Position numbers and translations under genes: made by a program. The notes beneath the pieces were generated by a model. The model worked only from the letters and a program-made list of their open reading frames with translations, was not told the origin of the DNA and made no database searches. A DNA stretch of 46,441 bases, from assembly GCA_009840965.1 (NCBI GenBank), contig VXMT01000159.1, forward strand, positions 1 to 46,441. The letters are read 5' to 3'. Below are positions 17,174 to 43,732 of the stretch, piece after piece. Within the stretch, counting starts at the first letter, position 1, and each line of letters starts with the position of its first letter. The DNA is from Chloroflexota bacterium. GTDB taxonomy: Bacteria; Chloroflexota; Dehalococcoidia; UBA2979.

Positions 17174-18916
17174 TCAGCGCGTGCGTGCCGCGGCCAGCTT
17201 CGCCTCCCAGCCGGCGGGCAGCTCGATCTTCTTCGCCACCGGGTAACCGAGCCTGCCGTTGTGCGCGAAGGTGCAGGCGTTGTTGCGGAGCGGGTCGCCG
17301 CCCACGGCGATCATGAAGTCGTCGGGCTCGAAGACGATCGGCACGAGCCGGTTCGGGTCGTCCGAATCGAGGAAAACGCGCGGGATCCTCCCGAGGTTCA
17401 CCTCGGCCTCGAGCGAGCGGATCACGTGGTCGGTCCAATCTCCGAGGTAGCGCTCGAACTCCCAGGCAGGGAGCCGGGCGTGGTCGAAGAGGTACTGCTT
17501 CACGTCCTGCTTGCTCCAGCCGGCCTTCGCGATCGTCTGCGCCAAAATCGGGCTGAGCACCAGCAGCGGCCGCAGCGAGCCCATCGACTTGCCGACGGTG
17601 AAGATCAGCTGCCAGGTGTTCTGCTTGAGCACCGCGTCGGCGATGTAGGGCAGGACGCGCTCGGGCGTGTCGCCGTAGACCGAGGCCATCATGTCGCTGC
17701 CGGTGTAGCGCGCGATGGTGACGGTGTTGTCGCCTGCCTCGAAGCCCATCTCCACGCTGTTGGGCGGCCAGCCGATCCCGGCGAGGACGTCCTCGTTCTC
17801 CGCCAGTACGACGCGCCAGGTGTTGCCGAACGTCGCCTTGTCGTTCTTGTGCAGCAGGAAGCCGGCGACGTTGCGCAGGTAGAGGCGCCAAAAGCGCCCG
17901 ACCGAGGTGTTCGCCTGGAAGCCGTCGCGCAGCGCGCCCTGCTCATAGTTGAAGCCCAGCTCCTTGATGATCGGGCCGTTGAGCGTGATCAGCGTCTCGG
18001 CGCCGGGCGTGTTGCCGCTGTGCTCCACCCCGTACTCGGGATCGGCCATCGCCTCGGCGAGGGCGACCAGCACCGGCATGTACTCCGGCCGGCAGCCCGC
18101 CATCACGCCGTTCACCGCGATGCTCCAGATCGTGACGGCGCGGTTGTCCGCGAGGATCACGCCCAGCACCTCGTCCGGGTCGCGATCCGTGAAGGCGAGG
18201 AACTCCTCCACCTTCGCGATGGTCGGCGGCACGACCGGCAGGCCGTCGCTCCACTCGCACTCGGTGAAGTAGCGGTTGACCTCCTCGAAGCTGCCCTCGA
18301 AGACGATCTCGCGCGGCGAGGGCTCGTCGAACGCGGGGGCGTCCTCGGGAGCCTCGAGCAGGTTGGCAACGACCGCGTCGAGGGTCACATCGAGGACGTT
18401 TTGCTTCATCTCCTCGTCGCTCTGGTTGCCGACGTGGCCGGGCACGAGCGCGAGGGGCAGGTTCGGCAGCCCGAGGCCGGCCGAGGTCGTGCCGGCCTGT
18501 CCGATGAAGCCCTCGCAGACCAACGAGGAGGTAGGGACGCCCGCCAGCTCGCACGCCGCGCTTGCCCGCATCACGGCGGGCGTGCAGCTGCCTCAGCAGC
18601 CCATCCCGGAGATGGCGGCGTCGACCCCCAGCTCCTTGAAGCGCTGCGGGAGCGAGGCGAGAACCTCGCGCTCCTCGGCGCCGTGCGTGGTGCCGAACTC
18701 GCGCCAGCTCACGAAGCGCACGCCGGGGTAGCGGGCTTCGAGCTGCGGTTCGAGCAGGTCGAAGACCTCGTCGCCGCGGTACACGTAGTCCCAGAGCTGG
18801 GCGATCGTCTTGCCGGCCAGGGTGTCCAGCCTCGGCGCGAGCGGCATCGGCTGGAGCTGGCGCTTGCTGCGGGGCCAGACGACCGGGTAGCGGCCGCCGT
18901 CGGTGCTGTTCGTCAT
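17174..18916 (-). CDS. Probable selenoprotein: UGSC-motif protein fused to a large uncharacterised C-terminal domain (580 aa if TGA 18593-18595 is read as Sec)
   Basis: Track ORFs 18593-18916 and 17174-18574 share one frame and are separated only by one TGA plus 6 sense codons. The junction reads ...AAISGMGC-[TGA]-GSCTPAV.... A strong SD (GAGGGAG, 7 nt) precedes ATG 18916, and none precedes the downstream ORF. A stem-loop follows the TGA. Confidence 0.65.
18551..18585 (-). other. Candidate bacterial SECIS stem-loop
   Basis: mRNA +11 to +45 from the UGA is GCACGCCCGCCGUGAUGCGGGCAAGCGCGGCGUGC. Either 7 bp GCACGCC/GGCGUGC (+3 bp) or 6 bp GCCCGC/GCGGGC with apical loop CGUGAU. A GU-containing loop lies about 20 nt from the UGA. 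Confidence 0.45.
18593..18595 (-). other. In-frame TGA, candidate selenocysteine codon (residue 108)
   Basis: Plus-strand tca at 18593-18595. Flanked by a Cys codon on the 5' side and Gly-Ser-Cys on the 3' side. Confidence 0.6.
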
Positions 18917-21184: not shown

Positions 21185-21796
21185 CTACTCCCCGTTGCGC
21201 CGGGGCACCTCGAGCTGCTCCATCACCTGCTCGAAGACCGCGTACTCCTGCGCGCCTACCACGGCGTCGCGCTCGTTGAAGATGAAGGTCGGCACGCCGC
21301 GCACCCCGATCTCGCGGGCGATCGTGATGCGCTCGTCCACCTGCTCCCGGTAGCGCCCCTCGTCCAGCACCGCTCGCAGTTCGTCGCGGTCGAGCCCCTG
21401 CTCTCCGCCGATCTCAAGCAGCGTCTCGAGGTCCCCGATGTCGGCCTCGCCCTCGAAGTGCGCGGCGAAGAGCGCACGGTGCAGGCCCTCGTCGTCGTGG
21501 CCGATCTCCTGCGCGTACTCGGCGGTCTCGAGGGCGAGGTGGGAGTTCGGCGTGAAGCGTCGCCCGCGGCGGAAGGTGATGCCGGCGCGTTCGCCTCGCA
21601 GCTCCAGGTGCGTCGGCGGATCGTCCGGCTTCGTGCGCGGCTCGCGCTCACGGCCCTGGGGCGGAATCGAGGGGTCGAGCAGGTACGGCCACCAGTGCAC
21701 GTCCAGCTCGTACTCCCGCCGCAGCTTCTCGACCTCCACGAGGCCGACGTAGCACCACGGTCAGATGAAGTCGCTGACGATGATGAGTGAGGTCAT
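21185..21796 (-). CDS. Probable selenoprotein: DsbA/FrnE-like thiol-disulfide oxidoreductase with U-P-W-C active site (203 aa if TGA 21761-21763 is read as Sec)
   Basis: The track ORF (21185-21739) lacks the family N-terminus. Extending upstream in frame gives MTSLIIVSDFI-[TGA]-PWCYVGLVEVEKL..., i.e. the family CPWC motif with TGA at the first Cys. An ATG with SD-like GGAAGGCGAGGG lies upstream. The C-terminal GVRGVPTFIFN...GAQ is typical of DsbA-fold proteins. Confidence 0.7.
21729..21747 (-). other. Candidate bacterial SECIS stem-loop
   Basis: mRNA +17 to +35 from the UGA is UCGGCCUC-GUG-GAGGUCGA, an 8-bp stem (one G-U pair) with a GU-containing apical loop about 22 nt after the UGA. Confidence 0.4.
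21761..21763 (-). other. In-frame TGA, candidate selenocysteine codon (residue 12)
   Basis: Plus-strand tca at 21761-21763. Followed by Pro-Trp-Cys codons. Confidence 0.65.
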
Positions 21797-21938
21797 GACG
21801 GCCCTCGCCTTCCGGCCCGCGTCCGCTCACCTCAGTATGACGCCTCGGGATCGCGGCTGCGCGCTCGCCCGGCATCGCAAACGGCGTCGCTGCTACCATC
21901 CACGCCCCACCGCCACGGCCCGAAGGGAGCGAGAGCGC

Positions 21939-22874
21939 ATGAACTTCGGACTGTTCCTGATCGAGTCGCCGCACCGCGCGCACGTCGGGCCCAGTGGACG
22001 CCACGCCGCGCCCGGACAGGGCGCCGCGCTCACCTCGCCCGAGTACCTCGGCGGCCTCGCACGCTTCGCCGAGGAGGTCGGGTTCGACTTCGTCTCGTTC
22101 CCGGAGCACGTGGTCCTGCCCGTGGACTACGAGTCGCGCTACCCGTACCAGCAGTACGAGGGCGGCGACTTCAAGCGCTACCCCTACGACGAGACGGCGT
22201 TCCCGGAGCCGGTCACCGCCCTCACCTTCGTCGCCGCCGTGACCGAGCGGCTGGAGTTGGGCACCTCGGTGCTGATCCTGCCGCAGCGCAACCCGGTGAT
22301 CCTCGCCAAGCAGCTCGCCACCCTCGACGCGCTCTCGCACGGCCGCGTCAGCCTGACGGTCGGCATCGGCTGGCTGCGCGAGGAGTTCGCCGCGATCGGC
22401 GTGCCCTGGGAGCGCCGCGGGCGGCGCGCGGACGAGTACATCCAGGCGCTGCGCAAGCTCTGGCGCGACGAGGTGTCCACCTTCCAGGGCGAGACCGTCT
22501 CCTTCGAGCGTATCCGCTGCCTCCCGAAGCCCGCGCAGCCGGACGGCCCGCCGATCATCGTCGGTGGGCACAGCCTCGGCGCGGCTCGGCGCGCGGGACG
22601 GCTCGGCGACGGCTTCATGCCGCTCGGCCTCGGCGGCTTCGGCGGCGAGGACATCACGCCGCTGCTCGAGGCCTGGCGCGAGGCGGCGGCCGCCGCCGGA
22701 CGCGAGCAGGCGGCGACGGAGCTGCGCATGGGCGCCGCGCCCGACCTCGAGTCGGTGCAGCGCGTCGCCGAGCGCGGCGCGACGCGCATCCACTTCTCCT
22801 TCTCCGCGCCAAGCCTCGACGAGGCGAAGCGCGAGCTGGAGCGGATCGCCAACGAGGTGATCGAGCGCTTCTAG
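21939..22874 (+). CDS. LLM class oxidoreductase, probably F420-dependent
   Basis: Start at ATG 21939 (SD GAAGGGAG upstream), 311 aa. FAEEVGFDFVSFPEHVV, GRVSLTVGIGW and PIIVGGHS motifs. The 5' extension of the track ORF is rejected. Confidence 0.8.
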   Translation: MNFGLFLIESPHRAHVGPSGRHAAPGQGAALTSPEYLGGLARFAEEVGFDFVSFPEHVVLPVDYESRYPYQQYEGGDFKRYPYDETAFPEPVTALTFVAAVTERLELGTSVLILPQRNPVILAKQLATLDALSHGRVSLTVGIGWLREEFAAIGVPWERRGRRADEYIQALRKLWRDEVSTFQGETVSFERIRCLPKPAQPDGPPIIVGGHSLGAARRAGRLGDGFMPLGLGGFGGEDITPLLEAWREAAAAAGREQAATELRMGAAPDLESVQRVAERGATRIHFSFSAPSLDEAKRELERIANEVIERF

Positions 22875-28112: not shown

Positions 28113-28991
28113 CTACGCGCCGCCGACGCCGAGCGGGCGCATCACCTCCTCCGCGAAGCGCTCGATCGCCTCGATCTTCGCCTCGACGGGCGACTCCTCG
28201 CCGGCCGGTTCCCAGGCGGGGATGCGGATACCGTCGAGGCCGGCGCGGCCCAGCTCGTCCAGCACCTCCGCGGTGGGCCACTCGCGGGGCTGGATCGTGA
28301 TCTCGAAGTCCGCCGGGTCTCGCCCGTTCTCCTCGAGGTACCCGTGCAGGCGGTCGATGACCTCGGGCACCGCGGTCGCCGAGGACCCGCCGCCAACCCA
28401 GCCGTCGGCGATGCGGGTGGCGCGCCGCAGCGCGATCTCGCTGCGGCCGCCGAGCGTGATCGGGATCGGAGCGGGCGGGACGGGCGCCATCGAGACGGCG
28501 TCGAAATCGAACCACTCGCCGTGGTGCTCCACCCAGCCGCCCGCCCAGAGGCGCCGCAGCACCTCGATCATCTCGGCCATGCGGCGGCCGCGGCCGGAGA
28601 AGGCCTGCCCGGTCTGGTCGAACTCCTCGCGGCACCAGCCCGCCCCGAGCCCGGCCACGACGCGTCCCTGGGTGAGCACGGCGGCGGTCGAGATCGACTT
28701 GGCGACGGTGAAGAGGTCGCGCGCGGGCGCGATGTAGACGGCGGTCATGCAGCGCAGCGTCGTCGTGACCGCGCCCACCGCCGAGGCGAGCGCCCAGGGG
28801 TCGGGCCAGTGCGTATCGGGGCGCCAGAACGGCACGCCGTCGGCGGTGCCGGGGTAGGCGGGGACGATCTCCTGCGGGTAGAAGAGATGGTCGGGGATCG
28901 CGAGGCCCTCGAACCCGAGCCGCTCCGACGCCTGTGCGAGCGGGAGCACCTGCTCCGTCGGCATGAAGCCAGTGAACTGCCAGAATCTCAT
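28113..28991 (-). CDS. LLM class oxidoreductase, probably F420-dependent
   Basis: 292 aa. LGFEGLAIPDHLFYP, GRVVAGLGAGW and PITLGGRS motifs. Confidence 0.8.
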   Translation of the reverse strand: MRFWQFTGFMPTEQVLPLAQASERLGFEGLAIPDHLFYPQEIVPAYPGTADGVPFWRPDTHWPDPWALASAVGAVTTTLRCMTAVYIAPARDLFTVAKSISTAAVLTQGRVVAGLGAGWCREEFDQTGQAFSGRGRRMAEMIEVLRRLWAGGWVEHHGEWFDFDAVSMAPVPPAPIPITLGGRSEIALRRATRIADGWVGGGSSATAVPEVIDRLHGYLEENGRDPADFEITIQPREWPTAEVLDELGRAGLDGIRIPAWEPAGEESPVEAKIEAIERFAEEVMRPLGVGGA

Positions 28992-29057: not shown

Positions 29058-30116
29058 ATGCAATTCGGCTTCTGCTACATCCCGGACTACTACCCGGACC
29101 TGCACGGCGAGTTCCGCGACTGGTACGAGCGGCTGCTCTCCGAGTGGGCCTGGGCCGACGAACTCGGCTACGACTCGGTATGGATCGCGGAGCACCGCTA
29201 TCCGGGCTACGCCTTCTCCTCGACACCGGTCGTGTTGCAGGCAATGGCCGATCGCACGAAGCAGATTCGCATCGGGACGGCCGTGGCGCTGATCACCCAG
29301 CGGCACCCGGTGCTGAGCGCCGAGCACTGGGCCGCGGTCGACGTGCTCTCCGGCGGACGGCTCAACTTCGGCATCGGCCGCGGCATCTCGGAGTACGACT
29401 TCGAGACCGTCGGCGTGCCCTCGGAGGAGTCGCGCGAGCGCTTCGAGGAGGCGTGGGAGGTGATCCGCCGGCTCTGGACCGAGGACGAGGTGGTGCACAA
29501 CGGCAAGTACTGGTCGTTCGACGTGCACACCCTGCGGCCGCGCCCGCTGCAGCAGCCGATGCCGCCGATCTACGTCTCCGCGCTGGCGTCGCCGGAGACG
29601 TACCGCTGGGCCGGGCGCAACGGCTACCACCTGCTGGTCGCGCCGTTCCTGCTCGACACCAACGAGCGGCAGCGCGGCTTCCTCGAGATCTACCGCGAGG
29701 AGCTGGCCAACGCCGGGCACGATCCCGCCGCGTTCGAGGTCCTCGGGACGTACCACCTGAGCATCGTCGAGCGGGAGAGCCAGCTCGAGGGGGCGGACCA
29801 GTACTTCTACAACTACCTCAACTTCATCCAGAACACCGGGAAGGAACGAACCGGCGTGAAGGAGGCGCTGGCCGGCGAGGCCAACCGCGCCTACCAGACC
29901 GGCGAGGGCCTGTACAAGGACGTCGAGGCGATGCGCCGTCAGCGCACCGTGATCGGCACCCCGCAGCAGTGCATCGAGCTTATGTCGGAGCTGGCCGAGG
30001 CATGCGGCATCACCGGCTGGTCGTTCGAGATCAGCTACGGCGGCATGCCCCCCGAGATGACCCGGGACCAGATGCAGCTCTTCGCCGAGGAGGTCATCCC
30101 CGTCCTGCGCCCGTAG
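29058..30116 (+). CDS. LLM class flavin-dependent oxidoreductase
   Basis: 352 aa. ADELGYDSVWIAEHRY, GRLNFGIGRG and PPIYVSA motifs. Confidence 0.8.
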   Translation: MQFGFCYIPDYYPDLHGEFRDWYERLLSEWAWADELGYDSVWIAEHRYPGYAFSSTPVVLQAMADRTKQIRIGTAVALITQRHPVLSAEHWAAVDVLSGGRLNFGIGRGISEYDFETVGVPSEESRERFEEAWEVIRRLWTEDEVVHNGKYWSFDVHTLRPRPLQQPMPPIYVSALASPETYRWAGRNGYHLLVAPFLLDTNERQRGFLEIYREELANAGHDPAAFEVLGTYHLSIVERESQLEGADQYFYNYLNFIQNTGKERTGVKEALAGEANRAYQTGEGLYKDVEAMRRQRTVIGTPQQCIELMSELAEACGITGWSFEISYGGMPPEMTRDQMQLFAEEVIPVLRP

Positions 30117-31322: not shown

Positions 31323-32630
31323 CTAGCGCTCCTCGGGGACCACGCCCGCGCGGGTGATCAGGTTCTTGCTGATCGCCTGGAAGGAGTCGGGCTCCAGCTC
31401 GTCCACGTCGGCCTTCCCGGACTCGACGACCTCGCGCTTGAACGGCTCGAAGCTCGGGATCTCGTCGTCGGCGAGGGGCTGCATCCACTGCTTGCGCTCC
31501 ATGGCGGCCTCGATGTACGGGGCCAGCTCCTCCAGCCTGCGCGCCCGGCGCTGGTCCTCCGCCACGGACTTGAACTCCGGCATGACCTCCTCGGAAAAGA
31601 GGCGCAGCGAGTCGCAGATCTCTCCGTGCGTGACGCGGCCGGCCTGGGCGCCGAGCATCACCTGGTCGGCGCCGGCCTCGATCAGCAGGTGGATCGCCTC
31701 GCGCGCCTCCTCGGGCGTGCCGATGCAGCTCGGTTGCCGGCGCGTGTGCTCGGCCTCGAGGCGGTCACGCGCGTCTTCGAAGATGTTCCAGAGGTTCGTG
31801 CGGCCTGGCGTGTGGCGGCCCGCAACGTAGAAGTGCGCGACGCCGGTGCTGAAGAACAGCCGGTTCGGCAGCGCGCGCTCGAAGGCCGCGTCGCTGTCGT
31901 AGTCGAGGACGAGCGGCTCGGCGATCGCGAAGTTGGCGTTGACGAAGTGACCGATCGGGACGCACTCGGTCTTGATCGCCTCGTAGTAGTCGTCGATCCA
32001 GCCGCCGACCTCGCCGGGCGGGAGGAAGGAGAAGCAGAGCACGCCGAGGCCGAGCCGGCCGGCGAGCCTGACCGCCTCGCGGTTGGAGCAGGCCATCCAC
32101 ATCGGCGGGTGCGGCCGCTGCACGGCCTTCGGAACGATGTTGCGGCAGGGCATCGAGAAGTACTCGCCGTCGTAGCCGGGGTAGGGGTCGAGCGCGAGCA
32201 TGTTCGCGGCCTGCTCGGTGGCCTCGAGCCACATCGCGCGCTTGTGCTCGAGCGGGACGCCGTAGCCCTCGAGCTCGCTGCGCGAGGCGGTCTCGCCCGT
32301 CCCGAAGTCGACGCGGCCGCCGGAAACGAGGTCGAGCGTGGCGATCCGCTCGGCGACGCGGGCGGGGTGGTTGTAGTTGGGCGGCATCGCGACGATGCCG
32401 TGGCCGAGCCGGATGCGCTTCGTGTTGCGCGCCGCCGCCGCGAGCACGATCTCGGGTGCGGAGGAGTGCGAGTACTCCTCGAGGAAGTGGTGCTCGACCT
32501 CCCAGACGTGGTCGATGCCGAGCTCGTCGGCGAGCTCGATCTGCTCGATCGTGTTCTGGAAGAGCTGCTGCTCGCTGCCTTCCGTCCAGGGCCGCGGGTG
32601 CTGGATCTCCAGGAAGATGCCGAACTTCAT
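31323..32630 (-). CDS. LLM class flavin-dependent oxidoreductase (long form)
   Basis: 435 aa. MKFGIFLEIQHPRPW..., ADELGIDHVWEVEHHFL and GRVDFGTGE motifs. Confidence 0.8.
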   Translation of the reverse strand: MKFGIFLEIQHPRPWTEGSEQQLFQNTIEQIELADELGIDHVWEVEHHFLEEYSHSSAPEIVLAAAARNTKRIRLGHGIVAMPPNYNHPARVAERIATLDLVSGGRVDFGTGETASRSELEGYGVPLEHKRAMWLEATEQAANMLALDPYPGYDGEYFSMPCRNIVPKAVQRPHPPMWMACSNREAVRLAGRLGLGVLCFSFLPPGEVGGWIDDYYEAIKTECVPIGHFVNANFAIAEPLVLDYDSDAAFERALPNRLFFSTGVAHFYVAGRHTPGRTNLWNIFEDARDRLEAEHTRRQPSCIGTPEEAREAIHLLIEAGADQVMLGAQAGRVTHGEICDSLRLFSEEVMPEFKSVAEDQRRARRLEELAPYIEAAMERKQWMQPLADDEIPSFEPFKREVVESGKADVDELEPDSFQAISKNLITRAGVVPEER

Positions 32631-36356: not shown

Positions 36357-38840
36357 ATGAACCGGGTACTCAGCGGGTGGAGTTGGCTGGTCACGGTCCG
36401 GCCGTACGCCACGATCGCCGTCCTCTTCGTGATCACCGTCGTCCTGGCGGCGGGCGCCGGCCGGCGCGCCGAGGTAATCGAGGGCGCGGCCCTGGCGTTC
36501 CTGCCTCCGGGGAACGCGGTCGCGGAGGCGATCGCGGAGATCGGCGAGCGCTTCGAGGAGACGGGCGACGTCCGGGTCGTGACGCTCGTCTTCCGCGGGG
36601 AAGCACTGACGCCGGAGGCGCTCACCCAGGCGGACGCCCTGCTCGACCGCATCATCGGCGACCCTGACGTGGGGGCGCTGTTCGCGCCCGGCGATCCGGT
36701 TGTGGCGCTCAGTCCGCTGCTCGAGGCCGCGCTCCAGGTGGACGGCTTCGCATCGGTCACGCAGGCGGAGATCGACGCCGTTCGCGGCGTCCCGGAGATC
36801 GGGGCCGTGATCGGCGCGCTCACGGGGACCGATGCGGACGGCACGCCGGTCGCGATCGCCACGATCCGCCTGACGGACACCGGGGACGAACGCATCGAGG
36901 AAGCCGAGCGGCGGATCAACGAGCTGGCGGTCGAGGACGAAGGCCCGCTACGCGTGAGCAGCGTCTCGCCCGTGGTGGTCGAGGACGAGTACAAGAAGGC
37001 CACCGAGGAAGGCACGGCGCCCCTGATTGGGCTGGCGCTGCTGCTGATCGCGGTGCTGCTCCTGGTCTTCCTGCGCACGCCCTCCGATCTGCTGCTCACC
37101 CTGCTCGGCCTACTCTTCTCGCTGATCTGGGTCATCGGGGCGGAGGGCTGGCTGGGACCGAACGGGCTGGCGCTGATCGGCCCGCCAAGCTCCCTCACCG
37201 CGCTGGTGCCGATCATCGTGATCAGCCTCACGGTGGACTACGCGATCCAGGCCGTCTCGCACTATCGAGAGCAGCGAAACGCCGGCGAGCCGGTGTTGGC
37301 CGCGGTCCGCCGAGGACTGCAGCACGTCACCGTGCCGCTGGTGCTGGCCGCCGTCACGACGATCGCAAGCCTGCTGGTGAACCTGCTCTCCCCGATCGGC
37401 GTCATGGGCGACTTCGGCATCGTCGCAGGGCTGGGCGTCGGGATGAGCCTGATCGTGATGCTGACGCTGATCCCGGCGGGCCGGCTGATCATCGACCGGC
37501 GGCGCGAGGCGCGGGGCACGTTGCGGGAGCCTCGCCCGGTCGCGAACGCCCTGCCGGGTATCACGAGGTTCGCCGAGCTGCTGGGGACGTCGGTCGCGCG
37601 GCAGCCGGCGCCCTACCTGGTGGTTGTGATCGTCGTGACCATCGGGCTTGGCTTCGCGGCCAGGGATCTCGAGTCGGGGTTCAACATTCGCGACATCCTG
37701 CCCAGCAGCGGGAGCGTGATCGAAGACCTCGACACCCTCGACAGCTCCGTCGGCGGCTCAACGGAGCTGGCCAGCGTCCTCGTGCGGGCGGAGGCGACGG
37801 AAGCCCGCACGCTGCTGAACCTGCACGACCTGCGGACCGCCTTCGACGACCCGGCGCGCCGCCCGGCGGCGGCCGCGGGACCGCTCCAGACATCGTACGA
37901 GTTGCTCGTGCAGGACTGGATCGAGGACAGCGGGGAGCCCGGCGACAAGTACGACCCGGAGCTCGCCGCGCTCTTCCGGGACGCCACCGCGGGAGTGGGC
38001 CTCGATCAGGCGCTGATGCAGGAGTTCCTCGACGGGCTCCAGGCGCGTGATCCCGCCGCCGCGCACGCGCTGGTGGACAACCCCAACGGCGCCGACCTGC
38101 TGCTGGTCCAGTTCCCGACCTTCTCCGGCGACCCCGCCATCACCAGGGAGCTCCAGGAGGACATCGAGGCGCTCTGGTTCGGGGAGGACGGCGCGATCAC
38201 GGCGACATCGGCCAGCATCACCGCGGTCACCGTGACGGACGAGATCACGAGCCGGCAGACCGCGGCGATCAGCACGACCATCGCAGTCGCCCTCAGCATC
38301 CTCGCCCTCTTCTTCTGGGTGACGCAGCGCCAGCCCTTACTGGCGGTGGTCGCGGTGGGGCCGATCGTGCTGGTCCTGATCTGGGTGCTGGGCACGATGG
38401 CGCTGCTGGACATTCCCTACTCGCTGGTCACGTCGATCATCACCGCGCTCTCGATCGGCATCGGGGTGGACTACACGATCCACCTGATCCATCGCTACAA
38501 GGAGGAGTTCGGTCGCGAGCGCAATCCGGAGCGAGCGGCGATCCAGACGCTGAAGACAACGGGCTCCGCGCTCCTCGGTTCCGCCCTCACCACGGCGCTT
38601 GGGCTCGGCGTGCTGGTAGCCTCGCCGGTGCTCGCGTCCCAGCAGTTCGGGATTACCGCGGCGATCACGATCGCCTACTGCCTGATCGTCTCGATGCTGG
38701 TCGTGCCGCCGGTGATGACGGTCTGGGGCGCCTACCAGAACATGCGCCTGCGCTCGATGGTGGACCGCATGGCGGAGGAGCTGGACCTGATGATCGAAGA
38801 CGTGCACCGGCGTCACGAGCAGGAGCAAGCCTCGTCGTAG
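36357..38840 (+). CDS. RND-superfamily MMPL/HAE3-type membrane transporter
   Basis: 827 aa. Two TM bundles (about aa 225-385 and 650-800) are separated by large soluble domains. The repeated motif LSIGIGVDYTIH / SLTVDYAIQ is typical of MMPL/HAE3 (HpnN-like) transporters. Native high-GC composition. Confidence 0.8.
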   Translation: MNRVLSGWSWLVTVRPYATIAVLFVITVVLAAGAGRRAEVIEGAALAFLPPGNAVAEAIAEIGERFEETGDVRVVTLVFRGEALTPEALTQADALLDRIIGDPDVGALFAPGDPVVALSPLLEAALQVDGFASVTQAEIDAVRGVPEIGAVIGALTGTDADGTPVAIATIRLTDTGDERIEEAERRINELAVEDEGPLRVSSVSPVVVEDEYKKATEEGTAPLIGLALLLIAVLLLVFLRTPSDLLLTLLGLLFSLIWVIGAEGWLGPNGLALIGPPSSLTALVPIIVISLTVDYAIQAVSHYREQRNAGEPVLAAVRRGLQHVTVPLVLAAVTTIASLLVNLLSPIGVMGDFGIVAGLGVGMSLIVMLTLIPAGRLIIDRRREARGTLREPRPVANALPGITRFAELLGTSVARQPAPYLVVVIVVTIGLGFAARDLESGFNIRDILPSSGSVIEDLDTLDSSVGGSTELASVLVRAEATEARTLLNLHDLRTAFDDPARRPAAAAGPLQTSYELLVQDWIEDSGEPGDKYDPELAALFRDATAGVGLDQALMQEFLDGLQARDPAAAHALVDNPNGADLLLVQFPTFSGDPAITRELQEDIEALWFGEDGAITATSASITAVTVTDEITSRQTAAISTTIAVALSILALFFWVTQRQPLLAVVAVGPIVLVLIWVLGTMALLDIPYSLVTSIITALSIGIGVDYTIHLIHRYKEEFGRERNPERAAIQTLKTTGSALLGSALTTALGLGVLVASPVLASQQFGITAAITIAYCLIVSMLVVPPVMTVWGAYQNMRLRSMVDRMAEELDLMIEDVHRRHEQEQASS

Positions 38841-38853
38841 GCGCGGCAGTCTG

Positions 38854-39888
38854 CTAGAGGGGCTTTCGAGCCAGGAAGCAGTACAGCGGTGTGAAGATGC
38901 CCGTCTTGCCGCCCGCGACATAGGCATCCGCGGTCCGATCCAGCATTCGGGCAACTTCCGCGGAGCCCTTCGGAAACAGCCGCACGAGTTCGGCCAGCCT
39001 CAGTCCTGTGATGAGCGCTTTGCGGCCCCACGGAAGCATGTGCAAGGTGCCGCCCAATGTCCCATGGCGACTCTCCATGGGTTGGTACCACGGTGTTGAT
39101 GGTCCCGTTGTGGCTCCTCGGTCTATCCCTTCGAGCACGTGGAATCCGGCCGCTTCGAGAGCGTGATCCACCTCCCTGAACGTCGCGATGTCGTTCAGCG
39201 CAATCCCGTGCATGAGGTCCAGCTTGATGGTCCGATGCCGGTCGTCGCTGGGATCGAACTCCTCCGTCAGACACATCTCCTGGCCCCAGAGGAGGGCGCC
39301 GGGCTTCAGCACGCGGAATATCTCCTCGAACGCGCCTTGCTTGTCCGGCGCATGGCACGTCGACTCGATGGCATAACCCCGGTCGAAGGTCTCGTCTCCT
39401 ATGGCGCTCATATCCATGAAGCTGCACGCCTCAAAATCGACCATGTGGTCCAGCCCGGACTCGGCGTTCAACCTCTTCGCCATATCCAGCTGGATCTCGT
39501 TGATGTTGATTCCTGTAACCCGGACACCAGCCTCACGTACGACGCGGCGCATTGGTCCGCCAACCCCACATCCAACATCGACCACCGTCATACCCTGCTG
39601 CAGCTCCAGCTTGGAGATCATCAACCGCTGATGCCGGACTATGGATTGCTCCAGCGTCTCATCAGGCCTGAGGGGTGCGAAGTGCAGGGACTCGCCCCAC
39701 AGGCAGACCATGAACGCGCTGGAAAGCGCGTAGTACTCGTTCGCCGTTTCGGCGTGGTCGGGGGCGCTCGCACCATCACCCCCCGCCACCCCCAGTCCGG
39801 TTCGGTCGTCGAAGTGCTGGATCCGACGCGAGACGTCGGATCGCTGGTAGCCGCGCCTGAGCTCCTTGAGCAGTCTGACTAGCTGCAT
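38854..39888 (-). CDS. SAM-dependent C-methyltransferase of the sterol 24-C-methyltransferase (SMT/ERG6) family
   Basis: SMT-region motifs YYALSSAFMVCLWGESLHFAP, SAM motif VVDVGCGVGGP, YAIESTCHAP and C-terminal PWYQP...GIFTPLYCFLARKP (Sterol_MT_C-like). The start is uncertain: ATG 39888 is preferred and ATG 39984 is possible. Confidence 0.8.
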   Translation of the reverse strand: MQLVRLLKELRRGYQRSDVSRRIQHFDDRTGLGVAGGDGASAPDHAETANEYYALSSAFMVCLWGESLHFAPLRPDETLEQSIVRHQRLMISKLELQQGMTVVDVGCGVGGPMRRVVREAGVRVTGININEIQLDMAKRLNAESGLDHMVDFEACSFMDMSAIGDETFDRGYAIESTCHAPDKQGAFEEIFRVLKPGALLWGQEMCLTEEFDPSDDRHRTIKLDLMHGIALNDIATFREVDHALEAAGFHVLEGIDRGATTGPSTPWYQPMESRHGTLGGTLHMLPWGRKALITGLRLAELVRLFPKGSAEVARMLDRTADAYVAGGKTGIFTPLYCFLARKPL

Positions 39889-40003
39889 GTCGTGGTACTC
39901 GCCTTTGCCTTTAGTCAAGCGTAGCCACACGCCGCGTTCGCGGCCAGCCGCGCCCTGGTGGGCGCGTCCGCCACGAGCCGGCAACCTCAGTCGCGATCGC
40001 GCG

Positions 40004-42028
40004 TCAGACGGGTAGCTCGCGCCGCCGCTCGGCGATGTGGAACTTCAGCTTCTTGCTCACCGAGAGCGACGGGAACGGGTCGATCTTGAGATTGTAGTTC
40101 TTTGGCGACACCTCGATCGTGAAGTGGTGCGCGAGCAGCAGCAGGTTGACCGCCAGCTGCAGCTCCATCCAGCGGTTGCCGAGGCAGGTGTGGGTGCCCA
40201 GCCCGAACGGGGCGTACCCGGGGCTGAGGTGCTCGTTGCGGTCGGGCAGATAGCGGTCGATATCGAACTCCCACGGATCGGGGAACACGCGGTCCATGTA
40301 GTGCGCGGCCGCCTGGGCGATGAACACCCGCGAACCCTGGGGAATCTCGTAGCCCTCCACCACGCACGCATTCATCACGTTCCGCACGGACATCGGAACG
40401 ATCGAGTACATGCGCATGGACTCCATGATGAAGCGGCGCGTGACGTCGACCGACTCCTCCGTGAAGTCCTCGCGTCCGGGATCGCCGCCATCGAACAGGG
40501 CGTCGGCCTCCTCGCGGATCCTGGCGTAGAGATCGGGCTGGGACGCCATCGCGTAGAGCGCGAAGCTCAGCCCATCGCCGAGGTAGACGCTGGCAATCAG
40601 CGGCGCCGAGAGGACGAAGCGCAGGTTCGACTCCGGGAGGAACGCAGGGTCGCTCGAGTGCATGCTGAGCAGGTCGTCCGCGAGATCGCGAGGGCGACCG
40701 GCCCGCTGGGCGGCCGTATGGACACCCTGGACGCGCTGCAGCAGCACCTCGATGCTCTTCGCGCGACGCCGCATCGCCGGGGTCTTGAGCATGAACTTGG
40801 GCATGACGCCCAGGACGTGCGTGGACAGCGCCCGTGTCTTGTACTTGACCAGATCGTCCAGGACGTCCTGCGAATCGACGCTGATCATCAGGGGCGAGAT
40901 CTGGGCGTTGATGAAGTGCCGGCACATAGCCACCGCGGGCATGGTGTCTCCGGCCTCCCAGGTCGCCATGTGTGATCGGATGTAGTCGTAGAGATTCTCC
41001 AGTTGCCCTTCCAGCCTCGCGCGCGAGTACCCCGGCGCCATCGCCTTGCGGAACCGGAAGTGATCGGCGCCGTCCAGCGCGGGCAGGATCCCGGATGCGC
41101 CATAGACCTTCTCGAAGTCCTGGAGGTAGTCCCGGGCGCGCAGGTACATGCGCCCCTGGCGGTGCGCCCAGTAGTTCGTCTCGGGCCCCGCCAGGATGAG
41201 CATGGGCTGCTGGAACGGCGGGTTGACCTGGTACACGGGCCCGTACTGCTCCGCGAGATCCGCGAACAGGGCAGGGAGGTTCCCGTCGCGAAGATGCCGA
41301 TGCAGCGCGAACTTGTGCAGCGGCACCTTCGGGATTGACTTGGTCAGGCCGCGCCGCAGCAACGGGACGTTGATGTTCTGGCTTACCGCCTCGGCGATCG
41401 CCCGGCCGATCAGGTCCATCCGGCAGATCAGCTCGATCCGCTCCTCCGACTCGTCATCGAGCTGGAACATGAAGCGGAAGACATCGCACGTGTCGATGAG
41501 GGCGACAATGATGATATCGCGAGGTGTGGGAATCTCGTTGGTGAAGATCACCTTGCTGATGCGCGTCTTGACGAACTCGGCGGCGGTGCCTTCCCCCTCG
41601 CTGCTGAACATCTCCGTCTGCCAGGCGGTACGAGCCAGCGTCCAGAAGTCGCCTTCGTGATGCTCGAGGATCTTCAGGTCAACCAGACGGTCCAGCGACA
41701 GGTCGATGATCGTCTCTGCCCGGGGAGCGAGCCGCTCGATCCAGTACTGGGCATTCCGCTGCGCCGGTTCGGCGGCGATCTGCTTGAGGACGGGATCCAG
41801 GGCCGGGTCACCCGTCTCCGTCTCGTCGAGCAGGATCAGGGAGTCCATGTCCGTGTCGATACGCGAGATGAGGGAGAGCTCCGCGAGCACGGCGCCGGCA
41901 ACGGCGCAGTTCAGACTCCAGCCGGGTACCTGGTGAAAGTACCCGCTCTCCTCGTTGAGCAGCATCAGGACGAGCTCTTCGGGCAACGTCAACAGTTGCG
42001 TCGCAACAGGATCCCTGGCGAGGGTCAT
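40004..42028 (-). CDS. Fusion protein: N-terminal GPP34/GOLPH3-family domain plus C-terminal cytochrome P450
   Basis: Start at ATG 42028 (SD GGAG 8 nt upstream), 674 aa. GPP34-like LPEELVLMLLNEESGYF...AVAGAVLAELSLISRI...GDPALDPVLKQI. P450 ExxR (ESMRMY) and heme loop FGLGTHTCLG. The track ORF extension to 42904 is antisense to the Rieske gene and is rejected. Confidence 0.8.
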   Translation of the reverse strand: MTLARDPVATQLLTLPEELVLMLLNEESGYFHQVPGWSLNCAVAGAVLAELSLISRIDTDMDSLILLDETETGDPALDPVLKQIAAEPAQRNAQYWIERLAPRAETIIDLSLDRLVDLKILEHHEGDFWTLARTAWQTEMFSSEGEGTAAEFVKTRISKVIFTNEIPTPRDIIIVALIDTCDVFRFMFQLDDESEERIELICRMDLIGRAIAEAVSQNINVPLLRRGLTKSIPKVPLHKFALHRHLRDGNLPALFADLAEQYGPVYQVNPPFQQPMLILAGPETNYWAHRQGRMYLRARDYLQDFEKVYGASGILPALDGADHFRFRKAMAPGYSRARLEGQLENLYDYIRSHMATWEAGDTMPAVAMCRHFINAQISPLMISVDSQDVLDDLVKYKTRALSTHVLGVMPKFMLKTPAMRRRAKSIEVLLQRVQGVHTAAQRAGRPRDLADDLLSMHSSDPAFLPESNLRFVLSAPLIASVYLGDGLSFALYAMASQPDLYARIREEADALFDGGDPGREDFTEESVDVTRRFIMESMRMYSIVPMSVRNVMNACVVEGYEIPQGSRVFIAQAAAHYMDRVFPDPWEFDIDRYLPDRNEHLSPGYAPFGLGTHTCLGNRWMELQLAVNLLLLAHHFTIEVSPKNYNLKIDPFPSLSVSKKLKFHIAERRRELPV

Positions 42029-42193
42029 CGGTCCCGCTCCTAACCCATCACCTTCAAGCGTAGCCACCGAGGTCACGCCCCGCAAGGCGATCCCGTACGG
42101 GTGCGACGGAGGAAATATGTCTCGTATCCTAGAAGGGACACCAGCCGGCCAGGGAGCCGTCGCCCCTCGATTGCGGGTGAGGAGTGGCGAACG
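42029..42193. promoter_or_regulatory. Divergent intergenic region between the P450 fusion and Rieske genes (promoters/operator expected)
   Basis: 165 bp. Contains the 10-bp palindrome CCCGTACGGG (42092-42101) and an AT-richer patch GGAAATATGTCTCGTATCCTAGAA. No specific site can be assigned. Confidence 0.3.
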
Positions 42194-43240
42194 ATGGTAG
42201 CCCGACATGGCGAGCCTGCGATCGTCGCGCTGCCTCCGTTCCCCGAGGGCTGGTACTTCGTCACGAGCCGCAAGGCCCTGCAGAAGGCCGGGCTGATCCA
42301 GACGACCTGGATGGGCGAGAACATCGTCGTCTGGAGCGACGATGAGGGGCGCGCCTGCGTCGCCGAGGCCTTCTGCCCGCACCTGGGCTCCGAACTCGGA
42401 CCGGACGCCGGAGGGCGCGTCTCCGCCGGGCGATTGGTCTGCCCCTTCCACGGCTTCGAGTTCGATACGACGGGCCAGTGCGTCGACACCCCCTACGCGC
42501 CCCCGCCCAGGTCCGCCAGGCTGCGCGTCTTCGAGACACGCGAGATCGCGGGCCTGATCTTCGGCTGGTGGGGAATCGGGGGGCGGGAGCCGCAGTGGGG
42601 CCTGCCCGAGGAGGCGCCGGACCAGACGGGCTGGAGCGAGGTGTACGTCCAGACGCTCCGCTTCCCCGGCCACCCCCAGGAGATCGCGGAGAACTCGGTC
42701 GACCTGGCCCACCTCCGCTACATCCACGGCTACGACAGCGTCAACCGCGTCGAACCGGCCTCGATTGACGGGCACCACATGGTGAGCCGGTTTGACTTCA
42801 CGAGTCGCCGCAAGGTCGCCAGAGTGGCGACGCTCACCTTCGAGATCTCCGCCGACACCGACATCTACGGGTTGGGCTACTCGTTCGTGAGCATCCGGGA
42901 GCACACGATCGGCATGGATATGCGCCTGTGGATCCTGGCGACGCCCGTCGACGGCGAGCTCGTCGACATGACGCTGGCCTCGCAGGTGCGGGAGATCCGC
43001 AACCCGAAGCGACTGTTCGTTGGCCTGGGACTCCTCCCGACGAGGCTGCGCGCGCCGCTCATGAACAGGTTCATGGCGTCCCGGCAGCGCCAGGACGTGC
43101 TCGACGACGTCGTGATCTGGGGGCGCAAGAAGTACGTCTCGCCTCCGCGCCTCAATCGTTCCGACGGCGAGATCATGGCCTACCGGGCCTACTGCGCCCA
43201 GTTCTACCCCGACCCGAGCGACTGCAGCGCCACGTCCTGA
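42194..43240 (+). CDS. Rieske [2Fe-2S] non-heme-iron oxygenase (oxygenase alpha-subunit type, KshA/Neverland-like class)
   Basis: ATG 42194 with SD GAGGAG upstream, 348 aa. Rieske ligands CPHLG...CPFHG. Mononuclear-iron motif ENSVDLAHLRYIH (D-x2-H-x4-H). Confidence 0.85.
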   Translation: MVARHGEPAIVALPPFPEGWYFVTSRKALQKAGLIQTTWMGENIVVWSDDEGRACVAEAFCPHLGSELGPDAGGRVSAGRLVCPFHGFEFDTTGQCVDTPYAPPPRSARLRVFETREIAGLIFGWWGIGGREPQWGLPEEAPDQTGWSEVYVQTLRFPGHPQEIAENSVDLAHLRYIHGYDSVNRVEPASIDGHHMVSRFDFTSRRKVARVATLTFEISADTDIYGLGYSFVSIREHTIGMDMRLWILATPVDGELVDMTLASQVREIRNPKRLFVGLGLLPTRLRAPLMNRFMASRQRQDVLDDVVIWGRKKYVSPPRLNRSDGEIMAYRAYCAQFYPDPSDCSATS

Positions 43241-43282
43241 GGCTCGCCACCGGCTGGCTGCGGATCCGCGCGGCCTCGCGCG

Positions 43283-43732
43283 CTACTCGCTGAGTTCGTC
43301 GCGCACGGCGCCCTGGCCCGGGTGCATCCACTCACTCTCGTAGCGCCGGTGCGCGAACTTCCACTCGCCGTCCACCTTGCGCAGGTGGTCGAAGTAGCGG
43401 CCCGCGAGGCGAAAGAGCCCGTCCGACATCCCCCACGCCGCGATGTAGCACTCGACCCGCGCCTCGTCCGGCGCGCCCTCGACGGCCTCGATGGCGAGGC
43501 TGTTCGTCCAGTGGCGGTAGTCGTCGCCGGTCACCTCGAAGAGGCGGCGCATGTAGGCTTCGAGCCCCTCGCGCCCTTCATGGCGGAACGCCCAGTCCGG
43601 ACCGATCAGTTCGAGCACGCCGTCCTCGGTGAACATCGCCGCCGTCCGCTCGGCCTCGCGGCGGTCGTAGGCGAGGTTCTGGCGGGCGAAGAGGTCACGG
43701 ATCGCCTCGCGGTCCTCGAGCGTCAGCGCCAT
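43283..43732 (-). CDS. NTF2-like / SnoaL-like fold protein
   Basis: 149 aa. REAIRDLFARQNLAYDRREAERTAAMFTEDGVLE N-terminus, typical of SnoaL_4/NTF2-like (ketosteroid-isomerase fold) proteins. Native high GC. Confidence 0.6.
   Translation of the reverse strand: MALTLEDREAIRDLFARQNLAYDRREAERTAAMFTEDGVLELIGPDWAFRHEGREGLEAYMRRLFEVTGDDYRHWTNSLAIEAVEGAPDEARVECYIAAWGMSDGLFRLAGRYFDHLRKVDGEWKFAHRRYESEWMHPGQGAVRDELSE

Follow-up and report, generated by a model that had tools for sequence, protein, structure and literature searches.

GOLPH3 is a peripheral membrane adaptor. In GOLPH3, PI4P is contacted by residues W81, R90, R171, and R174, and the R90L substitution by itself abolishes PI4P binding (PMC3596250). 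Bacterial proteins that combine a GPP34 (GOLPH3/Vps74-like) domain with a cytochrome P450 were described by Ferreira et al. (2025, Microbiome 13:4; PMC11706023) under the name “GPP34_L”; all 656 of these proteins came from sponge symbionts, their genes were transcribed in Aplysina, and they were proposed to be secreted PI4P-binding effectors. Among sponge symbionts, sterol-synthesis clusters are known from Dehalococcoidia, Nitrospiria, and Binatia (Kelly et al. 2022; PMC9531527). In vitro methylation of sterols has been shown for bacterial methyltransferases encoded in sponge metagenomes, although some bacterial homologues did not act on the sterols that were assayed (Brown et al. 2023; PMC10070321). 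Here, we examined a GPP34–P450 fusion gene of a Chloroflexota bacterium together with its surroundings in the window, that is, the whole 46,441-nucleotide stretch of DNA that was analysed. The coordinates of the features are collected in Table 1.

Table 1. Positions of the fusion gene, its parts, and the neighbouring genes in the window
Feature	Position	Strand	Evidence
GPP34–cytochrome P450 fusion gene (674 codons plus stop; ATG at 42028, stop at 40004)	40004..42028	-	ORF and translation, both Pfam domains
Shine-Dalgarno-like AGGAG, 8 nt 5' of the fusion ATG	42037..42041	-	Read from sequence
GPP34 (GOLPH3/Vps74-like) domain, aa 15–216	41381..41986	-	Pfam PF05719
Inter-domain segment, aa 217–246, basic, Pro-rich (...PLLRRGLTKSIPKVP...)	41291..41380	-	Between Pfam domain boundaries
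Cytochrome P450 domain, aa 247–659	40052..41290	-	Pfam PF00067
I-helix kink A479-S-V-Y-L-G-D485, without acid-alcohol pair	40574..40594	-	HMMER alignments to PDB P450s
Heme-ligand loop FGLGTHTCLG, F608–G617, C615	40178..40207	-	Translation
ERG6-type sterol C-24 methyltransferase homologue, 344 aa	38854..39888	-	Pfam Sterol_MT_C
HAE3/MMPL-type RND transporter, SSD-like membrane domain, 827 aa	36357..38840	+	Pfam MMPL, Sterol-sensing, Patched
Rieske [2Fe-2S] oxygenase, KshA-type catalytic domain, 348 aa	42194..43240	+	Pfam Rieske and KshA_C

A GPP34_L family member in a Chloroflexota genome

The fusion is encoded by a single ORF with its own Shine-Dalgarno sequence, as the first-pass annotation of this DNA had described it without giving the strand, which is the minus strand. 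All homologues of the fusion start at the same MTL... methionine; a longer ORF of 966 aa beginning at a GTG at position 42904 was rejected as the start because it overlaps the divergent Rieske gene. A scan of positions 38700–43400 for promoters and terminators found none above the shuffled expectation. When the 674-aa protein was used as the query in a protein search, a 100%-identical public protein (P0001) was found, and homologues with both domains, 672–687 aa in length and 68–100% identical to the query, formed at least 120 clusters at the 90% identity level, drawn from independent assemblies. Among GTDB species representatives, at least 552 loci in at least seven phyla encode a relative of the fusion; 80 of these loci, all of them near-full-length fusion matches and with complete long-read chromosomes among them, were inspected. 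The architecture of approximately 675 aa was kept across the clusters and inspected loci.

The first-pass annotation had warned that a frameshift or an assembly error might have joined two separate genes. No evidence in favor of such an artefact was found, whereas the same architecture and length recur in the independent protein clusters and in the inspected GTDB loci, the inter-domain linker is conserved among the homologues, and the published survey contains 656 such proteins (PMC11706023). Artefactual joining is refuted by this conservation across assemblies, and we consider its probability to be practically nil.

The fusion is a member of the GPP34_L family, with which it shares an identical architecture (N-terminal GPP34 and C-terminal P450 in a similar length), an occurrence in many phyla, and no structural difference. 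Its closest relatives, at 88–90% identity, are encoded by Chloroflexota metagenome-assembled genomes of the SB06xx bins, a series attributed by Ferreira et al. to Ircinia ramosa (PMC11706023). Two points of the first-pass annotation need mending: the fusion, of which it was aware of no characterised example, has already been described, and bacterial GPP34 proteins do not only stand alone, since numerous fusion forms in several subfamilies exist. A reported GPP34–Rieske fusion was not found among the GPP34 matches of 430–560 aa, which were either truncated P450 fusions or GPP34 domains with a tail that had no assignment.

The GPP34 fold and the altered P450 I-helix

The GPP34 similarity of the N-terminal part, which had been recognized from motifs, was confirmed in the Pfam search by a match to PF05719 (E = 1.3e−29, 104.1 bits, with the cut-off at 29.1) that covered profile positions 1–199 of 201. 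A profile of 25 bacterial GPP34 domains matched GOLPH3 at E = 1e−18 in a search against the PDB. When the AF2 model of the domain (pLDDT 88, pTM 0.86) was compared with known structures, GOLPH3 and Vps74 were the sole Foldseek matches with E <1e−3, at TM scores of 0.5–0.69 (best match, E = 2e−8 and TM 0.69). The predicted fold of the domain is that of GOLPH3/Vps74, including the helical core and the beta-hairpins. In contrast to those proteins, the bacterial domain is covalently joined to an enzyme, is acidic overall (pI 4.4), contains an invariant, bacterial-specific R-I-D-T-D motif, and lacks the residues of the PI4P pocket. In a profile alignment, W81, R90, R171, and R174 of GOLPH3 corresponded to P35, A44, E105, and I108 of the fusion; in other words, none of the four PI4P-contact residues is kept, and in the wider bacterial GPP34 consensus only the Arg equivalent to R174 is retained. 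The phosphoinositide analogy that the first-pass annotation had drawn from GOLPH3/Vps74 is therefore not transferable to this domain.

These features bear on the proposal of Ferreira et al. (2025) that the protein is secreted and directed at the host, with the GPP34 domain binding phagosome PI4P and blocking maturation and the P450 being accessory. The proposal draws on the report of the family only from sponge symbionts, on its transcription in the sponge (PMC11706023), and on the homology of GPP34 to a eukaryotic PI4P effector, GOLPH3. A sequence scan of the fusion protein found neither a signal peptide nor a transmembrane helix; type III and type IV effectors need no classical signal peptide, so that its lack does not by itself speak against secretion. 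However, replacement of the contact residues in a family where R90L suffices to abolish GOLPH3 binding (PMC3596250), the strong acidity of the domain, and the cytoplasmic heme loading and redox partners that a heme P450 requires all argue against a secreted PI4P binder.

The C-terminal part is a complete P450 in which every motif quoted by the first-pass annotation was found again (PF00067, E = 1.7e−40, 139.6 bits). The ExxR of the K-helix (E536–R539) is conserved, residues G609, G611, H613, C615, L616, and G617 of the heme loop are invariant in 37 close homologues, and C615 is at least 90% conserved in 26 diverse fusions. The suspicion that the I-helix departs from the usual motif was essentially correct. 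The canonical AGxET aligned to A479-S480-V481-Y482-L483 with one residue deleted, indicating that the acid-alcohol pair is absent and that Tyr482-Leu483 stands in its place. Y482, G484, and D485 are invariant in the 37 homologues, whereas sister fusion clades keep the canonical AGxDT. One of these, clade B, was sought in metagenomes with a single degenerate pattern; most of the 80 loci found in this way were stand-alone P450s from soil or peat, and about a dozen were usable fusion loci.

The acid-alcohol pair, an acidic residue and a Thr, normally relays protons for the activation of O2. With the pair replaced, non-standard oxygen activation is therefore expected; it may be assisted by a hydroxyl group of the substrate, or the reaction may be other than monooxygenation. 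P450s without the I-helix pair include P450eryF, P450cin, CYP74, CYP8A1, and CYP152, which likewise lack the conserved Thr and acidic residue; however, the combination of Tyr-Leu, a one-residue deletion, and an invariant Gly-Asp fits none of them, and the heme loop of the fusion is standard, unlike that of CYP74 or CYP8A1. The best PDB matches of the P450 domain were CYP184A1, CYP102-type enzymes, and CYP51, at about 20–25% identity, and CYP51 structures (E of about 1e−19, about 19% identity) scored no better than the CYP102 and CYP184 types. Fatty-acid and sterol enzymes were thus the nearest structures at equal scores in both the Foldseek and the PDB sequence searches, so that these matches do not discriminate the substrate. 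Identification as CYP51 was rejected because there is no close similarity and the I-helix differs from the HT[ST] signature of CYP51. No NCBIfam equivalog was found for the fusion; the matches, such as that to pentalenene oxygenase, were far below threshold, and the P450 is accordingly given no CYP family assignment.

P450BM3 of CYP102 and the CYP51-ferredoxin protein of Methylococcus capsulatus likewise combine a P450 with a second domain; the P450 domain of the fusion is most similar, at about 20% identity, to heme domains of the CYP102 type, of CYP184A1, and of the M. capsulatus CYP51. In the fusion, however, the extra domain is N-terminal and is no redox partner, having neither flavin nor iron-sulfur motifs. 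In function, the GPP34 domain is most nearly comparable to the N-terminal anchor by which microsomal P450s sit in the membrane. The alignment with P450DA begins at about aa 232 of the fusion, corresponding to residue 8 of the P450DA heme domain; that is, the P450 starts directly past the linker, where class-II P450s start past their anchor. The linker proper (approximately aa 218–231) was not modelled by AF2, with pLDDT <50 for aa 218–227, and the full-length model (pLDDT 69, pTM 0.56) is too weak to judge how the GPP34 surface lies relative to the P450 substrate channel.

A conserved and probably mobile cassette around the fusion gene

The gene immediately downstream of the fusion encodes a methyltransferase that matched Sterol_MT_C in Pfam at 67 bits (cut-off, 21.7), as well as CMAS and other methyltransferase domains, and that aligned end to end with yeast ERG6 at 33% identity (E = 7e−62). 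ERG6-like enzymes can also methylate non-sterol triterpenes, as the Botryococcus enzymes do. The Rieske oxygenase gene is divergently transcribed from the fusion gene. Its product had KshA as the best PDB match over its full length (E = 4e−24), with SxtT and DdmC also among the matches, and reached only 34.6 bits with the SdmA model, whose cut-off is 600, so that it falls outside that model. KshA_C-type oxygenases also act on non-steroids. The RND transporter gene, convergent with the methyltransferase gene, gave partial NCBIfam matches to HAE3 and HpnN-like models; the HpnN score (112.7 bits) exceeded that of BstA (28 bits), both being far below their cut-offs. The “sterol-sensing” Pfam match of this pump mostly reflects general homology of the RND membrane domain. 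The GC3 values of the fusion (0.89) and methyltransferase (0.77) genes are lower than those of neighbouring genes (0.93–0.97). The window also encodes NHL-repeat “eukaryotic-like” proteins.

In the 80 inspected loci, whose genomes are related and are not independent samples, a KshA-type Rieske oxygenase was encoded in 64, an ERG6-type methyltransferase in 56, an RND/MMPL transporter in 60 (MMPL in 48 and an AcrB-type RND in 12 further loci), and an amine-oxidase-like FAD oxidase in 50; this common FAD gene is absent from the window. At least one partner gene occurred in nearly every locus (77/80) and all four in 30/80, arranged in at least 15 gene orders, whereas the remaining flanking genes of the window recurred in 0–1 of the loci. 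The set of Rieske oxygenase, methyltransferase, and RND transporter genes, often with the FAD enzyme gene, has been kept through many rearrangements in at least seven phyla. A pair of MFS and LppX/LprG-type lipoprotein genes was present in 22/80 loci. Across phyla, the fusions are 67–72% identical and their partners 57–75%, values consistent with a joint horizontal transfer. More divergent fusions adjoin genes for sulfotransferases, acyltransferases, RND pumps, Rieske oxygenases, and FAD enzymes, which are tailoring and export functions for hydrophobic molecules.

These partners also weigh on the effector proposal, since they are bacterial membrane pumps and lipid-modifying enzymes rather than secretion systems. 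Pocket residues, secretion signals, and sterol-related neighbours lay outside the analyses of PMC11706023. The secreted PI4P-binder proposal is not supported by our analyses of residues, charge, and gene neighbourhood, and we consider it improbable.

The cassette resembles the sterol clusters of sponge metagenomes (PMC10070321, PMC9531527) in combining an ERG6-type methyltransferase with a Rieske oxygenase in the same symbiont phyla, and those clusters are likewise thought to have been horizontally transferred. They differ in centering on oxidosqualene cyclase, CYP51, ERG24, and SdmA/SdmB; none of these, and no ferredoxin or P450/KshB-type reductase, was found in the window. The named scaffolds of Brown et al. 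(2023) matched none of the loci of this analysis. A link of GPP34_L to a sterol methyltransferase, a Rieske oxygenase, or an RND pump is not mentioned by Ferreira et al., and the words “sterol,” “methyltransferase,” and “MMPL” each have zero occurrences in that paper (PMC11706023); nor did we find literature linking a GPP34–P450 fusion to sterol genes in bacteria. What is new here is the setting of the fusion, a probably mobile cassette that also encodes a sterol methyltransferase, a lipid pump, and a Rieske oxygenase of the steroid type.

A candidate role in lipid tailoring

This cassette suggests that the fusion modifies sterol-like lipids. We propose, at about an even chance of being right, that the protein is a cytoplasmic, membrane-docked oxygenase that tailors such lipids as the P450 of the mobile cassette. 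Its place of action would be intrabacterial, on the cytoplasmic side of the membrane. The GPP34 domain would stand in for the N-terminal anchor of eukaryote-type P450s and dock the enzyme to the membrane itself, to a lipid ligand, or to a partner, for example the Rieske oxygenase or the transporter. The PI4P pocket known from GOLPH3 is not conserved and would play no part in this docking. A sterol or a closely related polycyclic isoprenoid, either host-derived or made by the symbiont, may then be modified in succession by the P450, the Rieske oxygenase, and the methyltransferase, and the RND pump may carry the product across the membrane. The idea of the first-pass annotation that GPP34 serves as a membrane or lipid tether, or delivers a lipid, is still the most plausible reading of the domain and is strengthened by the lipid-tailoring and transport neighbourhood and by the location of GPP34 at the anchor position.

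The same docking logic would hold if the cassette tailored a hydrophobic substrate other than a sterol, for example a hopanoid or some other triterpenoid derived from squalene, an isoprenoid resembling carotenoids, or a long-chain lipid. The pump is closer to the hopanoid exporter HpnN than to the sterol transporter BstA, albeit below both cut-offs; fatty-acid-binding P450s (CYP184A1 and CYP102 types) are among those nearest in structure; the FAD partner is a member of the amine-oxidase/phytoene-desaturase-like superfamily; and the recurrent MFS–lipoprotein pair and the absence of sterol-synthesis genes from the window point in the same direction. Nevertheless, the methyltransferase has a Sterol_MT_C domain and the end-to-end alignment with ERG6, the Rieske partner has the steroid hydroxylase KshA as its closest relative of known structure, and homologues of the methyltransferase from sponge metagenomes are proven sterol methylases (PMC10070321). 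We therefore regard a non-sterol substrate as unlikely, though less so than the effector role.

A further alternative is catabolism of host sterols on the model of cholesterol degradation in actinobacteria, where a CYP125-like P450 acting on the side chain and KshA open up the steroid as a carbon source. Sponges are rich in sterols, and a KshA-type oxygenase and a P450 do occur here together with a lipid transporter. However, C-24 methylation is a biosynthetic rather than a degradative step, and RND pumps normally export. Genes for a KshB-type reductase, KstD, Hsa ring cleavage, and side-chain beta-oxidation were neither conserved in the 80 neighbourhoods nor present near the fusion in the window, and catabolism is in our judgment very unlikely. 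The KshAB steroid 9-alpha-hydroxylase catabolic system was likewise rejected, the KshA-like oxygenase being present without KshB, KstD, or Hsa.

If the cassette acts on sterols, as in the tailoring role that we favor, it would provide a concrete, expressible set of four to five genes from at least seven symbiont phyla, a first way into the function of bacterial GPP34 domains, and a test between a secreted PI4P effector and intracellular enzyme docking. The Tyr-Leu I-helix, set against the canonical sister clades, is a ready-made comparison for P450 mechanism. Unconventional sponge sterols bear additional alkyl groups on the side chain, are oxygenated at multiple positions, and carry sulfate groups. 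To our knowledge, the methyltransferase step is the only part of their formation shown for symbiont enzymes so far. It is a tentative and rather unlikely extension that the cassette, with the sulfotransferases found beside sister clades, is the bacterial machinery behind these sterols and that GPP34 is a prokaryotic module for lipid handling or membrane docking. If so, the GOLPH3 fold would have served ancestrally to dock lipids or enzymes and not to recognise PI4P. The identity of the maker of unusual sponge sterols also matters for the use of 24-isopropylcholestane and similar steranes as the oldest biomarkers of animals.

Fusion gene, family, and distribution

The GPP34-cytochrome P450 fusion gene proved, as the first-pass annotation had claimed, to be a single 674-aa ORF with its own SD sequence (AGGAG, 8 nt 5' of the ATG); it lies on the minus strand. 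The start shared by all homologues is the same MTL... methionine. The mechanical ORF is open 292 codons further 5', to a GTG at 42904, overlapping the divergent Rieske gene in antisense; the window has 70% GC, and automatic ORF lists therefore give a 966-aa ORF. Both domains that had been read from the translation were recovered with Pfam: GPP34 (PF05719) at aa 15–216 (E = 1.3e−29) and a complete P450 (PF00067) at aa 247–659 (E = 1.7e−40), with the ExxR motif (E536, R539) and the heme loop FGLGTHTCLG (C615) confirmed and both conserved.

Among 5.8 billion proteins searched, more than 120 clusters contained both domains (68–100% identity; 659–719 aa, most 672–687), one of them 100% identical and from a 187-kb ENA contig. 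When one genome per GTDB species was scanned, at least 552 loci encoded a relative of the fusion, and the best 80 of these all gave near-full-length matches, many on complete long-read chromosomes. Because the same architecture is conserved across these clusters and assemblies, a frameshift or chimera, proposed earlier as a possible refutation, is excluded, and artefactual joining of two genes is practically out of the question. The implied novelty of the fusion, in turn, does not hold, since the family was published in January 2025: the fusion is a member of the known GPP34_L family, which has exactly the GPP34+P450 architecture (Ferreira et al. 2025, Microbiome 13:4; PMC11706023). That study counted 656 such proteins, in one clade and all from sponge symbionts, showed transcription in Aplysina aerophoba, and noted rare GPP34+Rieske and GPP34+PotA fusions; in the literature searched, we found no other paper on bacterial GPP34.

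The best 80 loci belonged to Chloroflexota/Dehalococcoidia (60), Nitrospirota (7), Latescibacterota (6), Binatia (3), Opitutales (2), Thermodesulfobacteriota (1), and Gemmatimonadota (1), and the sequence identity of the fusion between phyla (67–72%) indicates horizontal transfer. The nearest relatives (88–90% identical) were Dehalococcoidia/Chloroflexi MAGs, including SB06xx bins from the sponge Ircinia ramosa. One fusion-bearing MAG, L064 (JAAXIB010000027.1, Nitrospirales isolate Plut_88904), may derive from the coral Porites lutea and not from a sponge, judging from the isolate name; if so, the "sponge-exclusive" distribution needs qualifying. The GC3 values of the fusion (0.89) and the methyltransferase gene (0.77) were below those of neighbouring genes (0.93–0.97), with overall GC of 0.65 and 0.62, respectively; the lower GC of the fusion, and especially of the methyltransferase gene, fits a later acquisition.

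Domain features

The bacterial GPP34 domain is related to eukaryotic GOLPH3 and Vps74. A profile built from 25 bacterial GPP34 domains matched GOLPH3 at E = 1e−18 and Vps74 at E = 1e−16, the AF2 model of aa 1–228 was confident (pLDDT 88, pTM 0.86), and its significant Foldseek matches were GOLPH3 and Vps74 only (E = 2e−8 to 3e−5, TM ≤0.69); judged from these profile and model matches, the homology and fold are solid. A R56-I-D58-T-D60 motif, W96, R156, P167, D171, and R197 were invariant in bacterial GPP34. Tandem double-GPP34 variants also occurred, with and without a P450 (P0134, 872 aa; P0129, 444 aa).

Ferreira et al. proposed that secreted GPP34 binds host PI4P and blocks phagosome maturation (PMC11706023); their paper analyses neither pocket residues nor secretion signals, and the words sterol, methyltransferase, and MMPL are absent from it. 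In GOLPH3, PI4P is contacted by W81, R90, R171, and R174, and binding is lost in the R90L mutant (PMC3596250). These residues aligned to P35, A44, E105, and I108 of the fusion, whose GPP34 domain, unlike GOLPH3, thus keeps none of the four; only the arginine equivalent to R174 was common among diverse bacterial GPP34 domains. Furthermore, the domain is acidic (pI 4.4; K+R 19 vs D+E 39), and sequence analysis of the protein detected no transmembrane helix and no signal-like hydrophobic N-terminus. Pocket residues, charge, cofactor, and gene neighbourhood all speak against a secreted PI4P effector, which we consider unlikely.

The P450 domain was remote from every solved P450 (identity ~20%, E ~1e−19 to 1e−21), its best PDB matches being CYP184A1, CYP102-type heme domains, taxadiene hydroxylase, and CYP51, including the lanosterol-bound Methylococcus enzyme. 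Because it also matched no NCBIfam equivalog model, it probably represents a new CYP family. The PDB alignments began at about aa 232 (opposite residue 8 of the heme domain of P450DA), so that the P450 starts directly after a short, basic, Pro-rich, poorly modelled linker (aa 218–231), and GPP34 would thus stand where eukaryote-type P450s have their N-terminal membrane anchor. The full-length AF2 model (pTM 0.56) was too weak to show the GPP34/P450 orientation. The atypical I-helix noticed at first pass was also borne out: the canonical AGxET aligned to A479-S-V-Y482-L483-G-D485 with one residue deleted, and Y482, G484, and D485 did not vary among 37 close homologues. When 26 divergent fusions were aligned, the I-helix fell into two classes, namely x-Y-x-G without the acid–alcohol pair in the window's clade and a few relatives, and a retained AG(L/I)(D/E)T in a second large clade; on this alignment, the altered I-helix is a derived, conserved feature of the window's clade.

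Gene neighbourhood

Coordinates of features in the window and in related loci (L-numbers, loci with relatives of the fusion)
Feature	Sequence	Position	Strand	Remark
GPP34-P450 fusion ORF, 674 aa	window	ATG 42028 to stop 40004	-	translation
Open frame before fusion start	window	42029-42904	-	antisense to Rieske gene
RND/MMPL transporter	window	36357-38840	+	convergent with methyltransferase gene
ERG6-type methyltransferase	window	38854-39888	-	115 nt 3' of fusion
Rieske oxygenase	window	42194-43240	+	divergent from fusion
Lower-GC region	window	38854-42028		methyltransferase and fusion
UGSC ORF pair	window	17174-18916	-	in-frame TGA 18593-18595
Luciferase-like monooxygenases	window	7373-8290; 21765-22874; 28113-28991; 29058-30116; 31323-32630		
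NHL-repeat proteins	window	4715-5740; 10226-11254	-	
Gp49-like (HigB-type) toxin homologue	window	4294-4668	-	
FAD amine-oxidase-like gene	L021	18024-19424		example
MFS transporter + lipoprotein	L018	16863-19129		example
Sulfotransferases	L082	9986-11230		3' of fusion
Sulfotransferases	L084	9163-11362		3' of fusion; same sample as window
Sulfotransferases	L085	2641-3555		3' of fusion

The methyltransferase and fusion genes lie between the outer transporter and Rieske genes. The methyltransferase carries Sterol_MT_C (Pfam, 67 bits) and aligned end-to-end with yeast ERG6 (33% identity, E = 7e−62). The Rieske protein carries KshA_C, shows CxH/CxxH cluster ligands and a DxxHxxxxH iron motif in its translation, and among solved structures is closest to the steroid 9-alpha-hydroxylase KshA (E = 4e−24, full length); against the model of the C-4 demethylase SdmA it reaches 34.6 bits, below the cut-off of 600. 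The pump is of the HAE3/MMPL type with partial likeness to HpnN, and its "sterol-sensing" Pfam match is for the most part one that RND pumps have in common. The 46-kb window contained no cyclase, CYP51, or redox partner.

The window's genes were compared by tblastn with the 80 loci (±10 kb, ≥50% query coverage), which are related and mutually non-independent: the Rieske oxygenase recurred in 64, the methyltransferase in 56, the MMPL pump in 48, and an AcrB-type RND pump in 12. All 12 AcrB-type pumps were in non-Chloroflexota loci, which lack MMPL, and this brings the loci with an RND pump to 60/80. Clustering of all ORFs of the loci (L002–L081) detected an FAD amine-oxidase-like protein (466 aa, PF01593) in 50/80, which makes it a common fifth component of the cassette; the 46-kb window has no homologue. 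At least one partner gene was present in 77 of the 80 loci and all four in 30; the loci showed at least 15 different orders and orientations, whereas the other window neighbours (lyase, SnoaL, DegT, DUF1214) recurred in 0–1. The clustering has therefore survived rearrangement and inter-phylum transfer, which argues for the cassette being a functional unit rather than reflecting shared ancestry of the genomic region. Near the cassette, 22/80 loci also had an MFS transporter and LppX/LprAFG-type lipoprotein pair, recalling the mycobacterial LprG-P55 lipid export pair.

The neighbourhoods of divergent fusions (30–45% identity) were looked up individually. One or two sulfotransferases lay directly 3' of three canonical AGxDT fusions, and an Acyl_transf_3 gene followed four divergent fusions (L082, L091, L092, L138), which suggests hydroxylation and then sulfation or acylation for those fusions. 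Others adjoined AcrB-type pumps, Rieske and FAD genes, or a methyltransferase, the common theme being tailoring and export of hydrophobic molecules; several of the contigs stem from metagenomes of Aplysina aerophoba and Petrosia ficiformis. Stand-alone P450 relatives (~36% identity) had no GPP34 gene nearby and occurred on non-sponge metagenome contigs (soil/peat by accession series).

Elsewhere in the window, two adjacent same-frame ORFs match Pfam UGSC (profile 2–91 and 101–168) and are split by a single TGA (G-C-TGA-G-S-C); from its sequence, the pair looks like one selenoprotein gene with a selenocysteine codon, and a hairpin 3' of the TGA was no different from shuffled sequence (z −0.4). 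There are also five luciferase-like monooxygenase paralogues, with more on the adjoining contig part (L001), two beta-propeller proteins with NHL repeats, an "eukaryotic-like" class often enriched in sponge symbionts, and a Gp49-like toxin homologue that may be half of a toxin-antitoxin pair.

Proposed function

The best explanation, to which we give an even chance, is a cytoplasmic, membrane-docked oxygenase that tailors sterol-like lipids. The protein would work on the cytoplasmic side of the bacterial membrane, where GPP34, in place of a transmembrane anchor, would dock it to membrane, ligand, or partner protein. Its substrate would be a sterol or a sterol-like isoprenoid; the ERG6 homologue would methylate the same compound and the KshA-like enzyme would oxygenate it, and the RND pump would then move the product. 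The Tyr-Leu I-helix would imply substrate-assisted or non-canonical oxygen chemistry. Counting against this explanation, cyclase, CYP51, and redox-partner genes are missing from the window, and ERG6-like and KshA_C-like enzymes can take non-sterol substrates; a non-sterol lipid or terpenoid handled by the same docking logic is a minor possibility. Sterol catabolism is very unlikely, as the methyltransferase is anabolic and KshB, KstD, Hsa, and beta-oxidation genes were found neither close to the fusion in the window nor as a conserved feature of the 80 loci. For the tailoring of sterols, bacterial methyltransferases from sponge metagenomes alkylate sterols in vitro (PMC10070321), and among sponge symbionts, Dehalococcoidia, Nitrospiria, and Binatia are known to have sterol-synthesis clusters (PMC9531527).

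In the searchable literature, we found no cassette with sterol methyltransferase, KshA-like oxygenase, FAD oxidase, and RND pumps, no mention of complete PI4P-pocket loss in GPP34_L, and no report of a clade-specific loss of the P450 acid–alcohol pair. Together, these three features lead from an odd domain fusion to a testable hypothesis on who modifies sponge sterols.
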